From: Candidatus Nomurabacteria bacterium
GTDB lineage: Bacteria > Patescibacteriota > Minisyncoccia > Phycocordibacterales > UBA918
Length of the DNA stretch: 64,000 nucleotides
Direction: 5' to 3'
NCBI GenBank assembly: GCA_020632015.1
Contig: JACKGI010000003.1
Coordinates: forward strand, 65,421 to 129,420
The notes under the pieces were generated by a model. It saw nothing but the letters and a program-made list of their open reading frames with translations. It ran no database searches and was not told where the DNA came from. Of this stretch, positions 50,611 to 62,905 are shown one piece after another (position 1 is the stretch's first letter; every line of letters begins with the position of its first letter). The position numbers and the translations under genes are program-made.

Positions 50611-50612
50611 GA

Positions 50613-50631
50613 GAAAGTCTGGGAGACTTTC
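50613..50631 (+). repeat. TGGGA-loop hairpin H1
   Basis: GAAAGTC-TGGGA-GACTTTC immediately after the pseudo tRNA 5' end. Confidence 0.85.
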
Positions 50632-50749
50632 GCAAGACCTTGCCAGCTAATCCTGGAGTTTACGACAGAAATAGCGACAAGGTGTACAGATCTCGTAGAG
50701 ATGAGGAGAGATTCTCCAACGTTGCTTCCGGAAGTAAAATTAAATACAT

Positions 50750-50820
50750 AGCGGGGTAGAGGAGAGGTACCTCGGGAGGCTCATAACCTCCAGACCCCAG
50801 TTCGATTCTGGGCCCCGCAA
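50750..50820 (+). tRNA. tRNA-Met(CAT), initiator type
   Basis: Manual fold: A1xA72 mismatch, U8, A11:U24 in the D-stem (GAGG/CCTC), anticodon loop CTCATAA, T-arm CCCAG-TTCGATT-CTGGG, 3' end CCCCGCAA. No encoded CCA. Confidence 0.8.
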
Positions 50821-50833
50821 CAAGATATCAAAA

Positions 50834-50860
50834 GCCAGCGAGCGTAGCTCGCCGGCTTTT
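50834..50860 (+). terminator. Rho-independent terminator after tRNA-fMet
   Basis: GCCAGCGAGC-GTA-GCTCGCCGGC followed by TTTT. Confidence 0.75.
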
Positions 50861-50877
50861 GCTATACTACTCCGCAT

Positions 50878-51579
50878 ATGAAATGTGTAATTTTAGCTGC
50901 TGGAAAAGGAACTCGCTTGCGACCATTAACAGAAGATACTCCGAAACCACTAATTAAAGTATCTGGCAAAACTCTCTTAGACCGAATTGTTGAGTCTTTA
51001 CCTAGTGCAGTTGATGAGCTTATTATTGTTACTGGATATCTTGAAGAAAAAATCAGAAAGCATTGTGGAGACAACTTCCATGGACGCAAGGTAACCTATA
51101 TTCATCAAGAAGAACAAAAAGGTACTGCGCATGCTCTGTGGCTTTGTAAGGATTTGTTGAAAGGTAAGGGGCGCTTTTTGTTCATGTTTGCCGATGACTT
51201 ACATGGCTCTACGGATATTGCACGAGCAACTTCTTATAGTCGTTCTATGCTTACCCTCACTACCGACAGTCCAGAAAAGTTTGGTATTGTGGTCCGACAT
51301 CCAGACGGGACATTAGCAGAAATAATCGAAAAGCCTGAGCATCCACCATCAAACTTGGCTTCTACTGGAGTGATGGTTCTTGATGATAATATCTTTAAGT
51401 TTGACCCATTTGCTACTGAAACTAAGGGCGAATACTACTTAACTGACGTAATCGCTGAGTATGCCAAAGAGTATCCGATTGCTGTGGTTGAGCAAACAAT
51501 GTGGATTCCAATTGGCTACCCTGAAGATATTGAAAAAGCGGAATACATTCTTGATAAGTTTGGCGGAAGTCTTGCATAA
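50878..51579 (+). CDS. sugar-1-phosphate nucleotidyltransferase
   Basis: N-terminal AAGKGTRLRPLT signature. TGCTATACT lies 9 nt upstream. Confidence 0.85.
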   Translation: MKCVILAAGKGTRLRPLTEDTPKPLIKVSGKTLLDRIVESLPSAVDELIIVTGYLEEKIRKHCGDNFHGRKVTYIHQEEQKGTAHALWLCKDLLKGKGRFLFMFADDLHGSTDIARATSYSRSMLTLTTDSPEKFGIVVRHPDGTLAEIIEKPEHPPSNLASTGVMVLDDNIFKFDPFATETKGEYYLTDVIAEYAKEYPIAVVEQTMWIPIGYPEDIEKAEYILDKFGGSLA

Positions 51580-51584
51580 AAGTG

Positions 51585-60768: not shown

Positions 60769-60772
60769 ATAC

Positions 60773-62539
60773 ATGAGTTGGATTAAAAATCACATAATAC
60801 CGCTAGTTGTGGTCTTGTTGAGTGTACTGATAGCTGTCGGTGTACTTTTGTACGAAGAGGAACTTCCAGAAGTAGAAGTTGTAGAAGAGGTTTTAAGTTC
60901 AGAGTTTCACTCAGCTTACTCTAATGATGAAACTCTTTACGGTATCAATTCTACCGATGGGTTAGATCAAAAATACACAGATACTGTTTACGGAGGGATT
61001 GTTTCTCACCATCTACTTTCAAACATTGATATTGCAAAGTTCTTTCACGAGTTCAGTGACCAAAAAGTAGATAAAGTTATTCTGATTGGACCCAACCATT
61101 TTTACCCAACAACATTTCCAGCTCTATCAACAAATCTAGATTACAAAACACCATTTGGTAACGTATTCGTTGATGAGGAATATATAGAGAAGATGGTGTC
61201 CAAGAAATTAGTACAAATTGCTGATGAGACTGTCGATACCGAGCATTCAGTTTCTTCGTTGGTGCCATATGTTGCTCACTATTTACCAGGAGCAAAGTTG
61301 GTTCCAGTCATATTTACAAGGAACGCCCCTGATGAACTCCTAGAGGACATCTCGGAGTTTTTGAAGAAGAACAATACAGAGAACACTATCGTGATTTCGA
61401 GTGTAGATTTCTCTCATCATTTGTACAGCAACGCATCTGCTCTACACGACTTAAGGTCCGTGTCAGCTATAAAGAGTTTCGACATCCCGAGCTTATCAGA
61501 GTTGGAAGTAGATAGCCCTCAATCCTTAAGTGTTCTGTTGCAGTACCTAGAGTCGATTGATGCTCAAGATATTTCTCTATGGCAACAAAACGCTGCAAAT
61601 ATTTTTGATGAATATGACATTGATGACGTTACATCGTATGTCTTTGCTCATGCTCGAAAGGGAAAAATGAAAGCCGAATCGGGTGCAAGCATGCTGTTCT
61701 TTGGAGACACAATGCTTGGTAGAGGGGTGGAAGAAATGATAGATGGGAATGTGGATTTATTCGCTGGAATTCGTGGTCCAGAGGGTAACTTCTTGAGAGG
61801 CTATGATGGTATAGCAGTAAATCTTGAGGGAGCGATTGCGGGAGATGATTGTGACTCTGTAGATGATGAGTTGCTTATACAGGCAGATAATTTGAAGTTA
61901 TTGAAGCAAGAGAATATTTCTCATGTGGGAGTAGTTAATAACCATTTTCAAAAATGTGATGAAGCTCAAGGTGTATCAGAAGTTGAGGGTAATGGTTTGA
62001 TTACACTTAACTCTAGTGATGTTATTCAAATAGAAGGTACTGATTTAGACATAGGAGTTCTGTCTGTATACGCAGCCCCTGTACCAACAGATATTTCAAA
62101 TATAGTGGAGTCGGTAAGGTTGGCTTCTCTGAAGAACGAAAAACTAATTGTGAACATACATTGGGGGGTAGAGTACAGCACTGAGCCTACTGGTGCACAG
62201 AAAGAACTAGCACACGCCATGGTTGATGCTGGAGCAGATATAGTCATTGGTCATCATCCGCACGTAATTCAATCAGTTGAAGTCTATAATGACGGAATCA
62301 TTGCTTATTCCCTTGGGAATTTTATTGCTGACCAAGAAGGAGAGATGACCAAGACAGGATTAGCTGCAGGAGTTTTCTTAAATGATACAAAAAAAGATTT
62401 ATTCTTATTTCCATTTGAGCAGAGAGAGGGTGTGCCAACACACTTAACTCAGGAAGTGGCAGGAGATATTTGCGACACTATTTTAGTATCAGAAATTAAT
62501 CACCCTAAACATAGTTGTATTATCCAAGTTGCAGATTAA
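60773..62539 (+). CDS. membrane-anchored fusion: Memo/AmmeMemoRadiSam-B-like N-domain plus CapA-family metallophosphatase C-domain
   Basis: N-part GGIVSHHLL...LIGPNHF...TEHS. C-part GDTMLGR, NLEG, NNH, HWGVEY, GHHPH and SLGNF (CapA/PGA-synthesis family pattern). Confidence 0.7.
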   Translation: MSWIKNHIIPLVVVLLSVLIAVGVLLYEEELPEVEVVEEVLSSEFHSAYSNDETLYGINSTDGLDQKYTDTVYGGIVSHHLLSNIDIAKFFHEFSDQKVDKVILIGPNHFYPTTFPALSTNLDYKTPFGNVFVDEEYIEKMVSKKLVQIADETVDTEHSVSSLVPYVAHYLPGAKLVPVIFTRNAPDELLEDISEFLKKNNTENTIVISSVDFSHHLYSNASALHDLRSVSAIKSFDIPSLSELEVDSPQSLSVLLQYLESIDAQDISLWQQNAANIFDEYDIDDVTSYVFAHARKGKMKAESGASMLFFGDTMLGRGVEEMIDGNVDLFAGIRGPEGNFLRGYDGIAVNLEGAIAGDDCDSVDDELLIQADNLKLLKQENISHVGVVNNHFQKCDEAQGVSEVEGNGLITLNSSDVIQIEGTDLDIGVLSVYAAPVPTDISNIVESVRLASLKNEKLIVNIHWGVEYSTEPTGAQKELAHAMVDAGADIVIGHHPHVIQSVEVYNDGIIAYSLGNFIADQEGEMTKTGLAAGVFLNDTKKDLFLFPFEQREGVPTHLTQEVAGDICDTILVSEINHPKHSCIIQVAD

Positions 62540-62798
62540 AACATTTTTAACCTACTTAGGTTATGTATAGTCTATATAAAGGGTGGGGGTCAATTCGGGG
62601 GTACCCCCCTTTTATATATAGAAGTTCGAGAATGATGCACCAGATTGATGTCTGTTTGATATCAACTAGGTGCAGACAGTTATTTGTTTTAAATGAAGAG
62701 TATTGGTTGATCTAAATTAGGTAGTTAACTCAAGGATATTTTCGAGGGAGTGAGATATTTTGAGTTCAAAGAACGAAGAAAATATCCACGAGAGTGAC

Positions 62799-62817
62799 CG
62801 AGTCCCTGTCCGGCAGC
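62799..62817 (+). repeat. direct repeat copy 2 of the tRNA-Gln 3' end
   Basis: Identical 19-mer located 4.78 kb from the tRNA. Confidence 0.9.
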
Positions 62818-62824
62818 TCGTAAG

Positions 62825-62848
62825 AAAAGCACCCGCAAGGGTGTTTTT
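62825..62848 (+). terminator. terminator inside the tRNA-Gln distal module
   Basis: AAAAGCACCC-GCAA-GGGTGTTTTT. An outer stem TGTCCGGCAGC/GCTGCCGGACA pairs the acceptor copy. Confidence 0.7.
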
Positions 62849-62858
62849 CTGTATACGG

Positions 62859-62905
62859 GCTGCCGGACAAGAAATAGTTTGGGAAACTATTTCGTGGGAC
62901 TCGAA
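62859..62905 (+). repeat. inverted tRNA-Gln 3'-end copy split by TGGGA-loop hairpin H3
   Basis: GCTGCCGGACA + A-GAAATAGTT-TGGGA-AACTATTTC-GT + GGGACTCGAA. This equals the reverse complement of TTCGAGTCCCTGTCCGGCAGC with a clean 26-nt insertion. Confidence 0.9.

Follow-up and report, generated by a model that had tools for sequence, protein, structure and literature searches.

The 64,000-nt stretch of Candidatus Nomurabacteria DNA analysed here (the window) carries genes for tRNA-fMet (50750-50821), tRNA-Met (51641-51715) and tRNA-Gln (57961-58032) on its plus strand, as predicted by ARAGORN, and a tRNA-Asp gene (52129-52203) on its minus strand. A preliminary description of this region reported three TGGGA-loop hairpins associated with the three plus-strand tRNA genes, and they are indeed present as H1 at the fMet locus (50613-50631, GAAAGTC-TGGGA-GACTTTC), H2 at the Met locus (51754-51777, GAAAACAGTC-TGGGA-GACTGTTTC) and H3 distal to tRNA-Gln (62871-62893, GAAATAGTT-TGGGA-AACTATTTC). 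All three lie on the plus strand and share the orientation relative to the tRNAs that had been noted, and the differences between their stems are paired as described. The pattern GAAAN{0,4}GTYTGGGARACN{0,4}TTTC has exactly three matches in the window, all on the plus strand, and none in 100 dinucleotide-preserving shuffles, so the chance expectation is none, while the 11-nt core GTYTGGGARAC by itself occurs three times against 0.11 expected. The preliminary description overlooked that the tRNA 3' end recurs in reverse complement, split by H2 and by H3, that the tRNA end is directly repeated at every locus, and that the family has a fourth member, its hairpin decayed, at tRNA-Asp on the minus strand.

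The element in front of tRNA-fMet represents a 5'-type, in which the hairpin (HP) is the first module and the target-complementary segment is absent. Its body (50611..50730, plus strand) consists, in order, of GA, the HP formed by H1, GCAAG, a P2 helix (50637-50644 paired with 50676-50683) that encloses a variable hairpin, the joiner GTACAG (50684-50689), a P3 hairpin with the loop GTA (50690-50702) and a 28-nt tail. The body is bounded by two plus-strand direct repeats of family D12, the left of which, T (50584..50610), corresponds to the 19 nt upstream of tRNA-fMet and its first 8 nt, while the right one, T' (50731..50757), runs into the functional tRNA-fMet. Two near-identical relatives (L122 and L123) possess an identical upstream gene and an uninterrupted tRNA-fMet and lack this type of body, which also occurs in L006, L021 and other Patescibacteria. 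Compared with these two relatives, the window copy amounts to 147 extra bp bounded by the 27-nt repeat, and the presence of H1 is polymorphic among close relatives. T carries the resident alleles (C, C) and is identical to the uninterrupted site, and T' carries the alleles (T, T) found in both repeats of the orthologous Parcubacteria locus L006; judging by these alleles, it is T' that was brought in by the element. The fMet element is matched at 50599-50721 (42.3 bits, E 1e-11) by the covariance model R1. No target-complementary segment was found in the 5'-type copies, including this one, which is the sole copy with a proven empty site. As well, the 3' end of tRNA-fMet is abutted by different DNA in the window, L001 and L122.

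The other elements belong to a 3'-type, in which the tRNA 3' end T is followed by a terminator, a reverse complement of T split by the HP, P2, the joiner, P3 and T'. At the Met locus, T (51697..51728, plus strand) extends from the T-loop of tRNA-Met to its 3' end and 12 nt beyond, and recurs as T' at 51847-51878 (repeat D7, 32 nt, 100% identity). As read from the sequence, T is followed by a terminator-like hairpin (~51723-51742) and by the split target-complementary segment (51744..51788), whose left arm TGTGTCGAC (51744-51752) and right arm AGGATTTGAA (51779-51788) flank H2 and are the reverse complement of tRNA-Met ttcaaatcct-ccc-gtcgacaca. A diverged core (51789-51846) precedes T', and a second terminator (51879-51892) was reported by the terminator scan, all on the plus strand. 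R1 matches this element at 51743-51869 (31.7 bits, E 2.5e-8), and in the predicted fold of 51690-51880 (-64.6 kcal/mol, z = -5.3) the tRNA 3' half is paired with the arms.

H3 had been assigned to tRNA-Gln, which holds in so far as a displaced copy of the tRNA-Gln 3' end precedes it, but the gene itself lies ~4.8 kb upstream. The 3' end of the functional gene, T0 (58013..58031), is repeated as T1 at 62801-62819, both being on the plus strand. The segment just before T1 (~62745-62800, plus strand; GAGATATTTTGAG...GAAGAAAATATCC) is probably a decayed P2 module, as suggested by visual comparison with L280, L322 and other intact copies, and it contains a weak R1 match (62751-62788, 6.7 bits, E 1.9). 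T1 is followed by a 3'-truncated element (62820..62947, plus strand), which comprises a terminator (~62826-62849), the left arm GCTGCCGGACA (62859-62869), H3, the right arm GGGACTCGAA (62896-62905) and, after it, the 5' half of P2 (AAGCTTTTGAGATAGATTTGA...). It lacks P3 and T', and an ORF begins at 62948. Together the arms match the reverse complement of tRNA-Gln ttcgagtccc|tgtccggcagc exactly, and R1 matches the element at 62859-62974 (34.8 bits, E 2.7e-9). The same arrangement recurs in L126-L128, and the sequence tcgtaaga..., directly after T, is common to the window and L306 and constitutes the element-borne left end.

The fourth copy (51955..52083, minus strand), located downstream of tRNA-Asp, gives the strongest R1 match in the window (89.8 bits, E 1e-26). 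It carries, on the minus strand, a decayed junction hairpin (~52073-52054), the right arm AGGATTCGAA (52053-52044), P2 (52042-51991, AGCTTTTG...CCAAAAGGTGTACTG), P3 (51990-51978, AATCTGTAAGATT) and T' (51979-51960), a repeat of 52149-52130 (D20).

R1 was trained on metagenome 3'-type copies only, with no window copies included, and it finds the fMet, Met, Asp and Gln-distal copies at E values from 1e-26 to 2.5e-8; by this model, the four are one family. The hairpin, which the preliminary description treated as a self-contained element, is in fact one module of a larger structured mobile insertion of ~110-170 nt that encodes no protein. The common core consists of the HP (loop mostly Y-GGG-R), P2 with a variable tip, a joiner (R-W-A-C-W-G, or RUACUG in the 3'-type) and P3 with the loop UGUAA (115 of 130 P3 loops were U-GUA-A). 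In H2, H3 and Asp, the ~20-nt reverse complement split by the HP covers the tRNA from the T-loop to the 3' end. The elements end in T', a sense copy of the last 8-30 nt of the target, which produces a direct repeat without disrupting the target gene; this repeat has 20-32 nt at the fMet, Met, Asp and Gln loci and 8-32 nt in the family as a whole. We consider it somewhat probable (about 0.55) that the TGGGA hairpin is the junction hairpin of a non-coding structured mobile-element family in Patescibacteria (CPR).

The loop, which had been called invariant, is so within the window, but not in a family sample collected without reference to the hairpin, where the junction hairpins carried UGGGA in 37 of 64 cases, CGGGG in seven, UGGGG in two and other loops in 18. 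An N-GGG-N loop is frequent yet variable, being found in 72% of copies. The proposed consensus GAAA..AGTY-TGGGA-RACT..TTTC proved too narrow, since GTATCAGTT/AACTGATAC and GCAACCTGC/GCAGGTTGC stems occupy the equivalent position. The proposal that the helix is preserved by compensatory change, rather than being a random palindrome, is supported by the same sample: the 46 GGG-loop hairpins have 35 distinct stems with 442 Watson-Crick and 11 G.U pairs, and every HP pair shows double changes in the alignment. Across the family alignment, compensatory double changes occur at 23 of 31 consensus pairs, while the apparent invariance of P2 and the joiner stems partly from the search pattern, which fixed both. 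Outside the arm pairs, G.U pairs and A.C mismatches stand at 20 : 5 (two-sided binomial p ~0.004, by hand arithmetic), an excess that points to folding of the tRNA-sense strand; it is the structure of this strand that is conserved.

The arms co-vary with their own targets. For right arms, the duplex energy was -13.1 kcal/mol with the cognate target and -9.6 kcal/mol with non-cognate ones (Mann-Whitney p = 4e-10), and for left arms, of which 52 were distinct, the values were -13.2 and -7.9 kcal/mol, respectively (p = 2e-13). In 52 of 58 cases the arms pair more strongly with the functional upstream T than with T'. T' is often a hybrid, with the left part GAAAYTCC, unlike the tRNA, in place of TTCGAATCC.

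A metagenome scan by the P2 pattern, in which the hairpin plays no part, recovered at least 120 loci with at least 136 copies, where ~1 would be expected by chance (hand estimate). The proposed tie between the hairpin and tRNA genes is borne out: a same-strand tRNA lies just 5' of 78 of the 136 copies, or of 78 of 114 if only copies with 200 nt or more of upstream contig are counted, at a distance of 53-374 nt and with 26 anticodon types represented. Further copies were found at the 3' end of rplK, at the stop codon and with an 8-nt repeat, and the family core is also present in an rRNA leader. Insertion is somewhat more probably than not site-specific at tRNA gene ends, and rarer at other conserved gene ends such as these two. 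Tandem copies occur in L305, L331, L274 and L340, the last of which has three, and no empty site was found for the 3'-type copies.

No ORF is present inside the elements, and clustering of 1094 ORFs from ~130 loci revealed no recurrent recombinase; likewise, Pfam searches of the neighbours of the four window copies returned no integrase. The suggested link to serine recombinases was not supported; the two large serine recombinase genes of the window (5406-6701 and 15423-16994) lie 34-45 kb from the tRNA cluster. A large serine recombinase element was rejected as a candidate, as no such gene adjoins the tRNA-locus elements of the window, none was found at the related loci, and the repeats are long compared with a short 2-bp crossover. 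An extra TGGGA hairpin (6806-6824) adjoins the first of these genes and a LOOT RNA.

In an Rfam 15 scan of the window at gathering thresholds, only the tRNAs and LOOT were reported; a scan of 50550-52250 at E <= 10 gave no match at the elements, and a scan of 18 related loci gave none at the hairpins. The families covered include hammerhead, hairpin, twister, hatchet, pistol, HDV-like, tRNA-like and group I intron RNAs. With no matching family in Rfam and none described in the literature searched, the family is apparently undescribed. A mimic of the tRNA anticodon arm was also considered, for which the CUGGGAG and UUGGGAA loops alone would suit a 7-nt anticodon loop (U33, purine 37), but the CGGGG variant (7 of 64) places C at position 33 and the stems have 7-14 bp, not 5.

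The insertions may be mobile, with base pairing as the means by which they find their target. The element would act as a folded single strand of DNA or RNA, whose complementary arms would pair with the target and so present the attachment site in duplex form, with the HP branch as its mark, to a recombinase or nuclease that would be provided in trans. One and the same pairing could recognise both the chromosomal T and T' at the element's own end, which would account for the precision of insertion, the regeneration of the target and the tandem arrays. As the 5'-type possesses no complementary segment, base pairing cannot be the whole targeting mechanism. A T-loop crossover by an ordinary integrase would equally yield repeats, hybrid T' copies and a better match to T.

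A reading that we think unlikely is that a conventional tyrosine integrase, acting in trans with a crossover in the T-loop/acceptor region, moved these insertions, which would be either miniature integrative elements or the scars of larger islands. The direct repeat would then be the attL/attR identity block that restores the tRNA, and the arms and hairpin would be passengers, for example a terminator-like or insulating structure, with no part in targeting. The att sites are as this predicts, in that the tRNA end is directly repeated on either side of the insertion and the tRNA is restored, and the repeat spans the T-loop to the 3' end, the classic sublocation for tRNA-targeting integrases. 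Hybrid T' copies with a divergent left part are expected at a crossover, the 5'-type has repeats and no arms, and the tRNA loci are clear recombination hot spots here, as seen from the differing 3' flank of tRNA-fMet and the 4.8-kb segment between tRNA-Gln and its displaced 3' end. Against this, no tyrosine integrase was found in or near any copy examined, in the window or at ~130 loci, a double-stranded circle of 110-170 bp is a poor integrase substrate, and the putative overlap of the GAAAYTCC subfamily differs from the T-loop. Moreover, more than 50 arm sequences that track their targets, together with the strand-specific covariation of the core, demand a function which passenger status does not provide. 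In another reading the element would be a cis-acting or stable RNA, a trailer or leader co-transcribed with the tRNA and pairing with its 3' half in processing, quality control, regulation or transcript protection. It would pass between relatives chiefly through homologous recombination or transformation, with no dedicated transposition. The orientation that is always sense to the tRNA, the RNA-like features (G.U excess, conserved pentaloops, multi-helix junction), the complementarity kept to the functional tRNA copy and not to T', and the comparable hairpin 5' of LOOT RNA would all suit such an RNA. We nevertheless regard it as improbable, because a terminator-like hairpin lies between the tRNA and the arms, where no promoter would fit, arm pairing would unfold the tRNA, and the core also occurs at the rplK stop codon and the rRNA leader. 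In addition, the T' copies, tandem arrays and precise 147-bp difference are hallmarks of insertion, and the 8-nt repeat is too short for homologous recombination.

Still more doubtful is a new small self-cleaving or self-ligating ribozyme, with the arms paired to T or T' as substrate helices. Its arm-hairpin-arm against a contiguous substrate would be a hammerhead topology, and the internal loops of P2 loosely recall loop B of the hairpin ribozyme. The three-way junction with its conserved joiner and loops, and the coincidence on the left side of the element ends with the ends of the paired segments, agree with this idea. However, no known ribozyme family matched even at E <= 10, the junction strands have only 1-2 nt and no hammerhead core, the likeness to the hairpin ribozyme was judged only by eye and breaks down at key positions (G at the place of C25), and DNA insertion would still require reverse transcription or a DNA enzyme. 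Hardly any weight can be given to the notion that the three hairpins arose as palindromes by chance or serve as generic terminators. Perfect hairpins fitting the pattern do occur in unrelated taxa (Streptococcus, Rhodobacteraceae and scattered single loci), yet in 596 Gb scanned they are no more than expected. None is expected in the window, H1-H3 are not followed by a T-run, the terminator scan reports other hairpins, and in the hairpin-independent sample a hairpin recurs with 35 stems at the matching structural position. Shuffles, stem diversity, compensatory changes and R1 matches thus refute this reading.

If the insertions are mobile elements guided by base pairing, they resemble several known systems in part. 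Elements of the IS200/IS605 family have strand-specific subterminal hairpins, whose adjacent nucleotides pair both with the flanking target and with the end of the element itself and thereby define the cleavage sites; they insert immediately 3' of a specific target, which is regenerated with no staggered-cut duplication, and their miniature protein-less derivatives (PATEs) are mobilised in trans. The present family resembles IS200/IS605, PATE and REP-RAYT elements in its regenerated target and protein-less copies, and it has hairpins, pairing to the left flank and a target-like right end. However, its pairing involves ~20 nt against guides of ~4 nt, T' is a long repeat whereas IS200/IS605 lacks an 8-30-nt target repeat, and the P2-joiner-P3 core has no counterpart there. 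IS200/IS605 is defined by a Y1 HUH transposase (PF01797), for which tblastn gave no match in the window; Y1/RAYT genes were present at only three of ~130 loci and never between element ends, so that neither the window nor these loci support membership. The Y1 gene in L330 has its own inverted repeats and looks like an independent insertion.

Guidance by an element-borne nucleic acid towards a conserved chromosomal target is also known from the bridge RNA/seekRNA of IS110/IS1111, in which two guide segments of the bridge RNA flank a stem-loop, and from type V-K CAST, whose homing guide matches the tRNA gene beside the insertion point. Here, by contrast, a single split segment is present, whose two arms pair contiguously with one strand, unlike the IS110/IS1111 guide halves, which read opposite strands, and there is no second, donor-binding loop; the element is ~10 times smaller and has no ORF, its transcription is putative, and no IS110 recombinase, Cas12k or Tns genes were found, so that an IS110/IS1111 element was rejected. 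In group I and II introns (IGS/P1, EBS-IBS), similarly, an internal guide pairs with the sequence immediately 5' of the insertion point, and in group II introns a two-part guide reads one contiguous target. The present elements differ in having no intron core and no G.U at the junction, and it is duplication, not splicing, that restores the host gene; Rfam places the genuine group I introns that L006 and L021 carry elsewhere in those tRNAs, and none at the element.

The tRNA-targeting integrative elements and satellites (CIME-like elements and tycheposon-type arrays) are comparable in their insertion at the tRNA end, the gene-restoring repeat, the tandem partial tRNA copies and the integrase-less derivatives. 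The present family differs in its size of 110-170 bp, its conserved folded core and target-complementary segment, and its repeat of down to 8 nt at rplK, and no integrase-bearing parent was found at ~130 loci.

Finally, the integron attC site and the attP(+) of CTX phage differ from these elements in that the target here is a tRNA gene, not attI or dif, that no IntI/Xer-type core (R/L-box or dif-like sequence) was found, that the large P2-joiner-P3 domain is conserved, that the 5'-type has no inverted copy and that the single-strand form is putative. In both of those systems, as is proposed here, one strand folds so that inverted copies form a mimic of the duplex site, extra-helical features determine the strand choice, structure is kept while sequence is free, and the enzyme is encoded elsewhere. 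In the present family, T folds stably with its complement (z = -5.3 at the Met locus), the pairing runs on across the junction and a strand bias of G.U over A.C is seen, and T, the terminator and the complementary arms are predicted to form an attC-like hairpin with the HP as a side branch.

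Exactly three sequences in the window match the hairpin pattern, at 50613-50631 (H1, tRNA-fMet locus), 51754-51777 (H2, tRNA-Met locus) and 62871-62893 (H3, distal tRNA-Gln locus), all on the plus strand, in agreement with the preliminary description. The pattern was matched in none of 100 dinucleotide-preserving shuffles of the window, and the 11-nt hairpin core is present three times where 0.11 occurrences are expected. According to ARAGORN and Rfam, the window carries five tRNAs, namely tRNA-fMet (50750-50821), tRNA-Met (51641-51715), tRNA-Thr (52998-53071) and tRNA-Gln (57961-58032) on the plus strand and tRNA-Asp (52129-52203) on the minus strand. 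The fMet, Met, Asp and Gln loci each possess a direct repeat of a tRNA end. At tRNA-fMet, the repeat (27 nt, spacing 147 nt) consists of 19 nt upstream and the first 8 nt of the tRNA; at tRNA-Met (32 nt, spacing 150 nt), of the T-loop to the 3' end plus 12 nt; and at tRNA-Asp (20 nt, minus strand, spacing 170 nt), of the T-loop to the 3' end. The last 19 nt of tRNA-Gln (58013-58031) are found again at 62801-62819, at a spacing of about 4.8 kb.

H2 and H3 interrupt reverse-complement copies of the neighbouring tRNA 3' ends. The tRNA-Met sequence ttcaaatcct-ccc-gtcgacaca corresponds to tgtgtcgac-H2-aggatttgaa in the element, while ttcgagtccc/tgtccggcagc of tRNA-Gln corresponds to gctgccggaca-H3-gggactcgaa. 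In the predicted fold of the Met region (-64.6 kcal/mol, z = -5.3), these arms are paired with the 3' half of the tRNA. H1, which belongs to a 5'-type element placed before its tRNA, is located directly 3' of the left repeat copy, and complementary arms are absent there. The general order of the element is T (the sense target end), a terminator-like hairpin, left arm, junction hairpin, right arm, P2 (a core helix with a variable tip), a short joiner, P3 (a second hairpin) and T' (a second sense copy at the 3' end of the element). T is usually the tRNA from T-loop to 3' end, and both arms together form its reverse complement. The interval between tRNA-Gln and the displaced copy of its own 3' end (58033-62800) contains three to four genes, including those for a 613-aa protein without Pfam match and a Memo+PGA_cap fusion, and is devoid of a recombinase. 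It terminates in what looks like a decayed P2 module, recognized by eye at about 62745-62800, just 5' of the displaced end, and matched only weakly by the model.

In a hairpin-independent sample, 64 copies carry a hairpin immediately before the right arm; their junction loop is UGGGA in 37, CGGGG in 7, UGGGG in 2 and of other sequence in 18, so the TGGGA loop once regarded as invariant is not family-wide, nor is the GAAA/TTTC stem foot general across the family sample. The proposed compensatory change in the stems was borne out and extends to the whole family, as 46 GGG-loop hairpins represent 35 different sequences, with stems of 6-14 bp and 442 Watson-Crick versus 11 G.U pairs. The P3 loop is U-GUA-A in 115 of 130 distinct copies. 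RNAalifold recovered the junction hairpin, the pairing of right arm with T', P2, an inner helix and P3 from 37 copies, with compensatory double changes in 23 of the 31 consensus pairs. Outside the arms, G.U pairs outnumber A.C pairs by 20 to 5 (two-sided binomial p about 0.004, by our own arithmetic), suggesting that the tRNA-sense strand folds as a single strand, either RNA or DNA.

The covariance approach envisaged in the preliminary description was realized as model R1, which was built only from metagenome 3'-type copies (those lying behind a tRNA 3' end) and, with filters off, matches four copies in the window: the Asp copy (51955-52083, minus strand; 89.8 bits, E 1e-26), the fMet copy (50599-50721; 42.3 bits, E 1e-11), the Gln-distal copy (62859-62974; 34.8 bits, E 2.7e-9) and the Met copy (51743-51869; 31.7 bits, E 2.5e-8). 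Since R1 matches both 5'-type and 3'-type copies, they constitute a single family, four members of which are present inside 12.4 kb.

A scan of 185,579 species genomes (596 Gb) with the hairpin pattern returned at least 120 loci; perfect hairpins account for 34 of the 120 matches listed, where about four would be expected by chance as estimated from the pattern. These perfect hairpins comprise a Patescibacteria group (Parcubacteria, Saccharibacteria, Kaiserbacteria, Nomurabacteria, Paceibacterota and others), a Streptococcus mitis-group repeat, a Rhodobacteraceae repeat and single loci. Behind the hairpin, the Patescibacteria loci have GCAAGA, a helix, GAACAG or GTACAG, and a TGTAA-loop hairpin. 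The helix is AGGTTG/CAACCT or, by a double compensatory swap, ACCTTG/CAAGGT, and encloses a variable hairpin. Locus L006, from a Parcubacteria genome, is orthologous to the gatC-gatA-ORF-tRNA-fMet locus of the window and has the same 147-nt unit and repeat; at L021 the unit is located behind a copy of a different tRNA's first 25 nt, and at L041 about 140 nt 5' of 23S rRNA. The window is placed in Patescibacteria by synteny and by the elements it shares with L006 and other named genomes. The multi-copy Streptococcus mitis-group repeat (gggagt-GAAACAGTCTGGGAGACTGTTTC-agcctgag...) and the Rhodobacteraceae repeat have a hairpin almost identical to H2 and none of the remaining modules (L003, L009, L013, L023, L026, L033, L035, L060, L066, L091, L111, L131, L161; L020, L065, L084, L117), and may be unrelated artefacts of a pattern scan over 596 Gb. 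Viral contigs gave one true copy (L185), their other matches being the Streptococcus repeat.

The second module, AGCTTTTG...CCAAAAGGTRTACTG plus the TGTAA-loop hairpin, is common to the Asp copy, the sequence after H3, L055, L057 and L185. Used alone in a hairpin-independent scan of metagenome contigs, many of them short, it recovered at least 120 loci with at least 136 copies, against about one match expected by our own estimate; the search pattern fixed P2 (AGCUUUUG/CCAAAAGG) and the joiner, whose conservation is thus overstated in this sample. A same-strand tRNA is present 53-374 nt upstream of 78 of the 136 listed copies, covering 26 anticodon types, and a further 22 copies are on contigs too short to judge. 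Two or three copies occur at 12 of the loci listed, several in tandem, and at seven listed loci the element site is the stop codon of rplK (L282, L363, L372, L376, L381 and L382 among them). Members of this subfamily target the final codons of ribosomal protein L11 and have a repeat of just 8 nt (atcgaagt); one arm lies directly behind the target, and a new stop codon is provided by the element. Six loci (L275, L287, L297, L309, L312, L364) possess a conserved insert of about 56 nt (…caccacaagagtatttac…attcctttcagtcattaaaaactaggtcaaa) between right arm and P2, and in L057 and L053 an entire 5'-type module is nested between the arms, suggesting that the family is modular.

The arms follow the target sequence. 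Duplex energies with cognate and non-cognate T' are -13.1 versus -9.6 kcal/mol for the right arm (Mann-Whitney p 4e-10) and -13.2 versus -7.9 kcal/mol for the left arm (p 2e-13), the left arms comprising 52 distinct sequences. In 52 of 58 cases the upstream, functional T pairs better with the arms than T' does, and T' is often truncated or changed in its T-loop part. Pairing begins at about the left repeat edge (median offset -2 nt) and runs about 12 nt beyond the junction between T and element, into the first bases of the element itself. The junction would therefore lie inside one long helix, capped by the terminator-like hairpin and branched by the junction hairpin. For 5'-type copies, duplex energies of T with the element body are no better than those of shuffled T. 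The guide hypothesis is weakest at this point, since in copies without arms recognition by a protein would have to be enough, unless the arms are an accessory.

The fMet copy is a precise presence/absence polymorphism. The 211-aa protein upstream of the fMet locus is identical in the window and in L122 and L123, and these two loci read ...gaagcaaaattaaacacat directly into agcggggtagagg..., with tRNA-fMet intact and the 147 bp absent. The left repeat copy of the window has the alleles of these empty sites, while the right copy has two T variants that are those of both L006 copies, so the element imported its own copy of the target end. The source assembly of L123, GCA_020428855.1, has the tRNA-Gln arrangement of the window on another contig (L126), so very close relatives are being compared. 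For the 3'-type copies no empty site was found, the flanking proteins being either not on record or in filled contigs only. A second variable junction is located at the tRNA-fMet 3' end (window 50815-50830; L001 5930-5950; L122 2775-2790), where the window, L001 and L122/L123 are alike only up to ccccgcaacaaga; L001 has restriction-modification and HNH-like genes upstream, and L122/L123 have different downstream genes.

No ORF was found inside the elements, and Pfam assigned only housekeeping functions to genes around the four window copies. No recombinase recurs among 1094 clustered ORFs from about 130 loci, and the intervals between distant T/T' pairs, searched for an autonomous parent, contain small cargo genes only. 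Most frequent among the neighbours, at 10 loci, is a protein of about 220 aa that combines an N-terminal HTH_23/HTH_7 domain with an unrecognised C-terminal domain (motif LYWAEGAK). Its gene precedes, by 4-10 nt, a tRNA-Gly, Met, Gln or Val gene with an element on its downstream side (L295 4572-5231, L374 5303-5962, L332 4351-5016, L292 662-1330, L286 796-1476, L336 259-954, L341 2431-3117, L366 2892-3587, L006 2703-3404). In L006 this gene adjoins an H1-type element, and in the window it is absent; it could be either a candidate helper or one more selfish gene associated with tRNAs. Y1/RAYT transposase genes occur at three of about 130 loci (L330, L055, L372). In L330, a RAYT/IS200-like Y1 gene (761-1435, minus strand) directly follows P3 of an element behind tRNA-Ser(gga); it was rejected as an autonomous parent because it has its own flanking inverted repeats (agagggtcaggtaccctttt).

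The preliminary description also raised a link to serine recombinases, which was not supported: the window has two large ones on the minus strand (5406-6701 and 15423-16994), but these lie at a great distance from the tRNA cluster, and none is recurrent at related loci. The interval that they bound (5406-17000) also contains a terminase-like ORF, an N6/N4 DNA methylase, a LexA-like S24 repressor, SMODS and bacterial HORMA (CBASS-like) genes and a DUF5677 gene, and is probably an integrated element or defence island. A further TGGGA-loop hairpin, AATAGCT-TGGGA-AGCTATT (6806-6824, plus strand), is located 17 nt 5' of a LOOT RNA (6842-6968; Rfam RF03000, 76.9 bits) and about 105 nt upstream of a large serine recombinase gene start, inside the spacer of a promoter-like TTGCCT-17-TATTAT. 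The hairpin type may serve as a module in further structured RNAs of the organism.

Rfam is empty at the elements, both at gathering thresholds and at E <= 10, and gave no match at hairpins of the Patescibacteria group, including L006, L021 and L041. The group I intron matches of L006 and L021 are anticodon-loop introns of the same tRNAs and separate from the element (L006 2158-2422, minus strand; L021 7319-7578, plus strand; a further one is at about 6380-6430 of L055); ARAGORN misses the intron-bearing tRNA genes of all three loci. That the same tRNAs carry both suggests that Patescibacteria tRNA loci gather several kinds of selfish elements. Mimicry of an anticodon arm or T-loop is contradicted by the CGGGG loops and long stems. 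A primer-binding site complementary to a mature tRNA 3' end, as an analogy, is rejected because the arms track the gene sequence and the complement of CCA is absent where CCA is unencoded, while the likeness to hammerhead or hairpin ribozymes is topological only, the catalytic core being absent. A full-text literature search, including literal sequence strings, found no description; its coverage was incomplete, and an earlier description is possible.

The family is thus a structured element of fixed architecture, situated at the ends of tRNA and other conserved genes and carrying a copy of its target, with which its arms co-vary. We tentatively propose, with a probability of roughly 0.3, that these are protein-less mobile elements of about 150 nt whose own nucleic acid programs insertion through a 20-nt target complement split by the Y-GGG-R hairpin. 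This segment would recognize the end of a tRNA gene or of any other conserved gene, acting either in single-stranded DNA folded into an attachment site or in a guide RNA, on behalf of a recombinase or nuclease from the host or an unseen helper, and retargeting would only require changed arms and a changed terminal target copy. Retargeting of this kind is suggested by the 26 tRNA targets and by the arm variants, which number more than 50. In the likeliest mechanism, a single-stranded form would fold and its arms would pair with the target sequence; the resulting duplex would present an image of the attachment site, with the Y-GGG-R branch marking position and strand, where an enzyme supplied in trans would cut and join. 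Either T is the resident copy and the element ends in its own T', with the same arms reading both, as in IS200/IS605 logic, or the arm-adjacent T comes with the element and the T-loop region is where crossover takes place, as in integron attC and CTX attP(+). Both versions fit all data at hand.

If programming by nucleic acid is true, the family would add a new class to guided site-specific recombination and would be the smallest known element of its kind. Should the arms direct insertion, about 20 nt of pairing and a compact folded core would make a minimal, naturally reprogrammable targeting module, which has already been aimed at dozens of sites in evolution and bears on guided recombination (bridge RNAs, OMEGA systems, CASTs, folded att sites) and possibly genome engineering. 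In the small Patescibacteria genomes, such elements would account for much of the disorder at tRNA flanks, such as partial tRNA copies, doubled terminators and contig breaks, and would be a third kind of selfish element at tRNA loci besides group I introns and integrated islands. Even with a conventional integrase as the mechanism, this is still a new, abundant and structurally conserved non-coding element absent from Rfam, which merits a model and a name.

Among known systems, the elements resemble IS200/IS605 and PATEs, whose defining Y1 transposase is not part of them, as well as tRNA-targeting integrative elements and their satellites, whose integrase is likewise absent. They also resemble bridge RNAs, without the IS110 recombinase, and intron guide pairing, without an intron or ribozyme core. 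Finally, they resemble CAST homing guides, in that a putative guide is carried by the element, and folded att sites such as integron attC and CTX attP(+).
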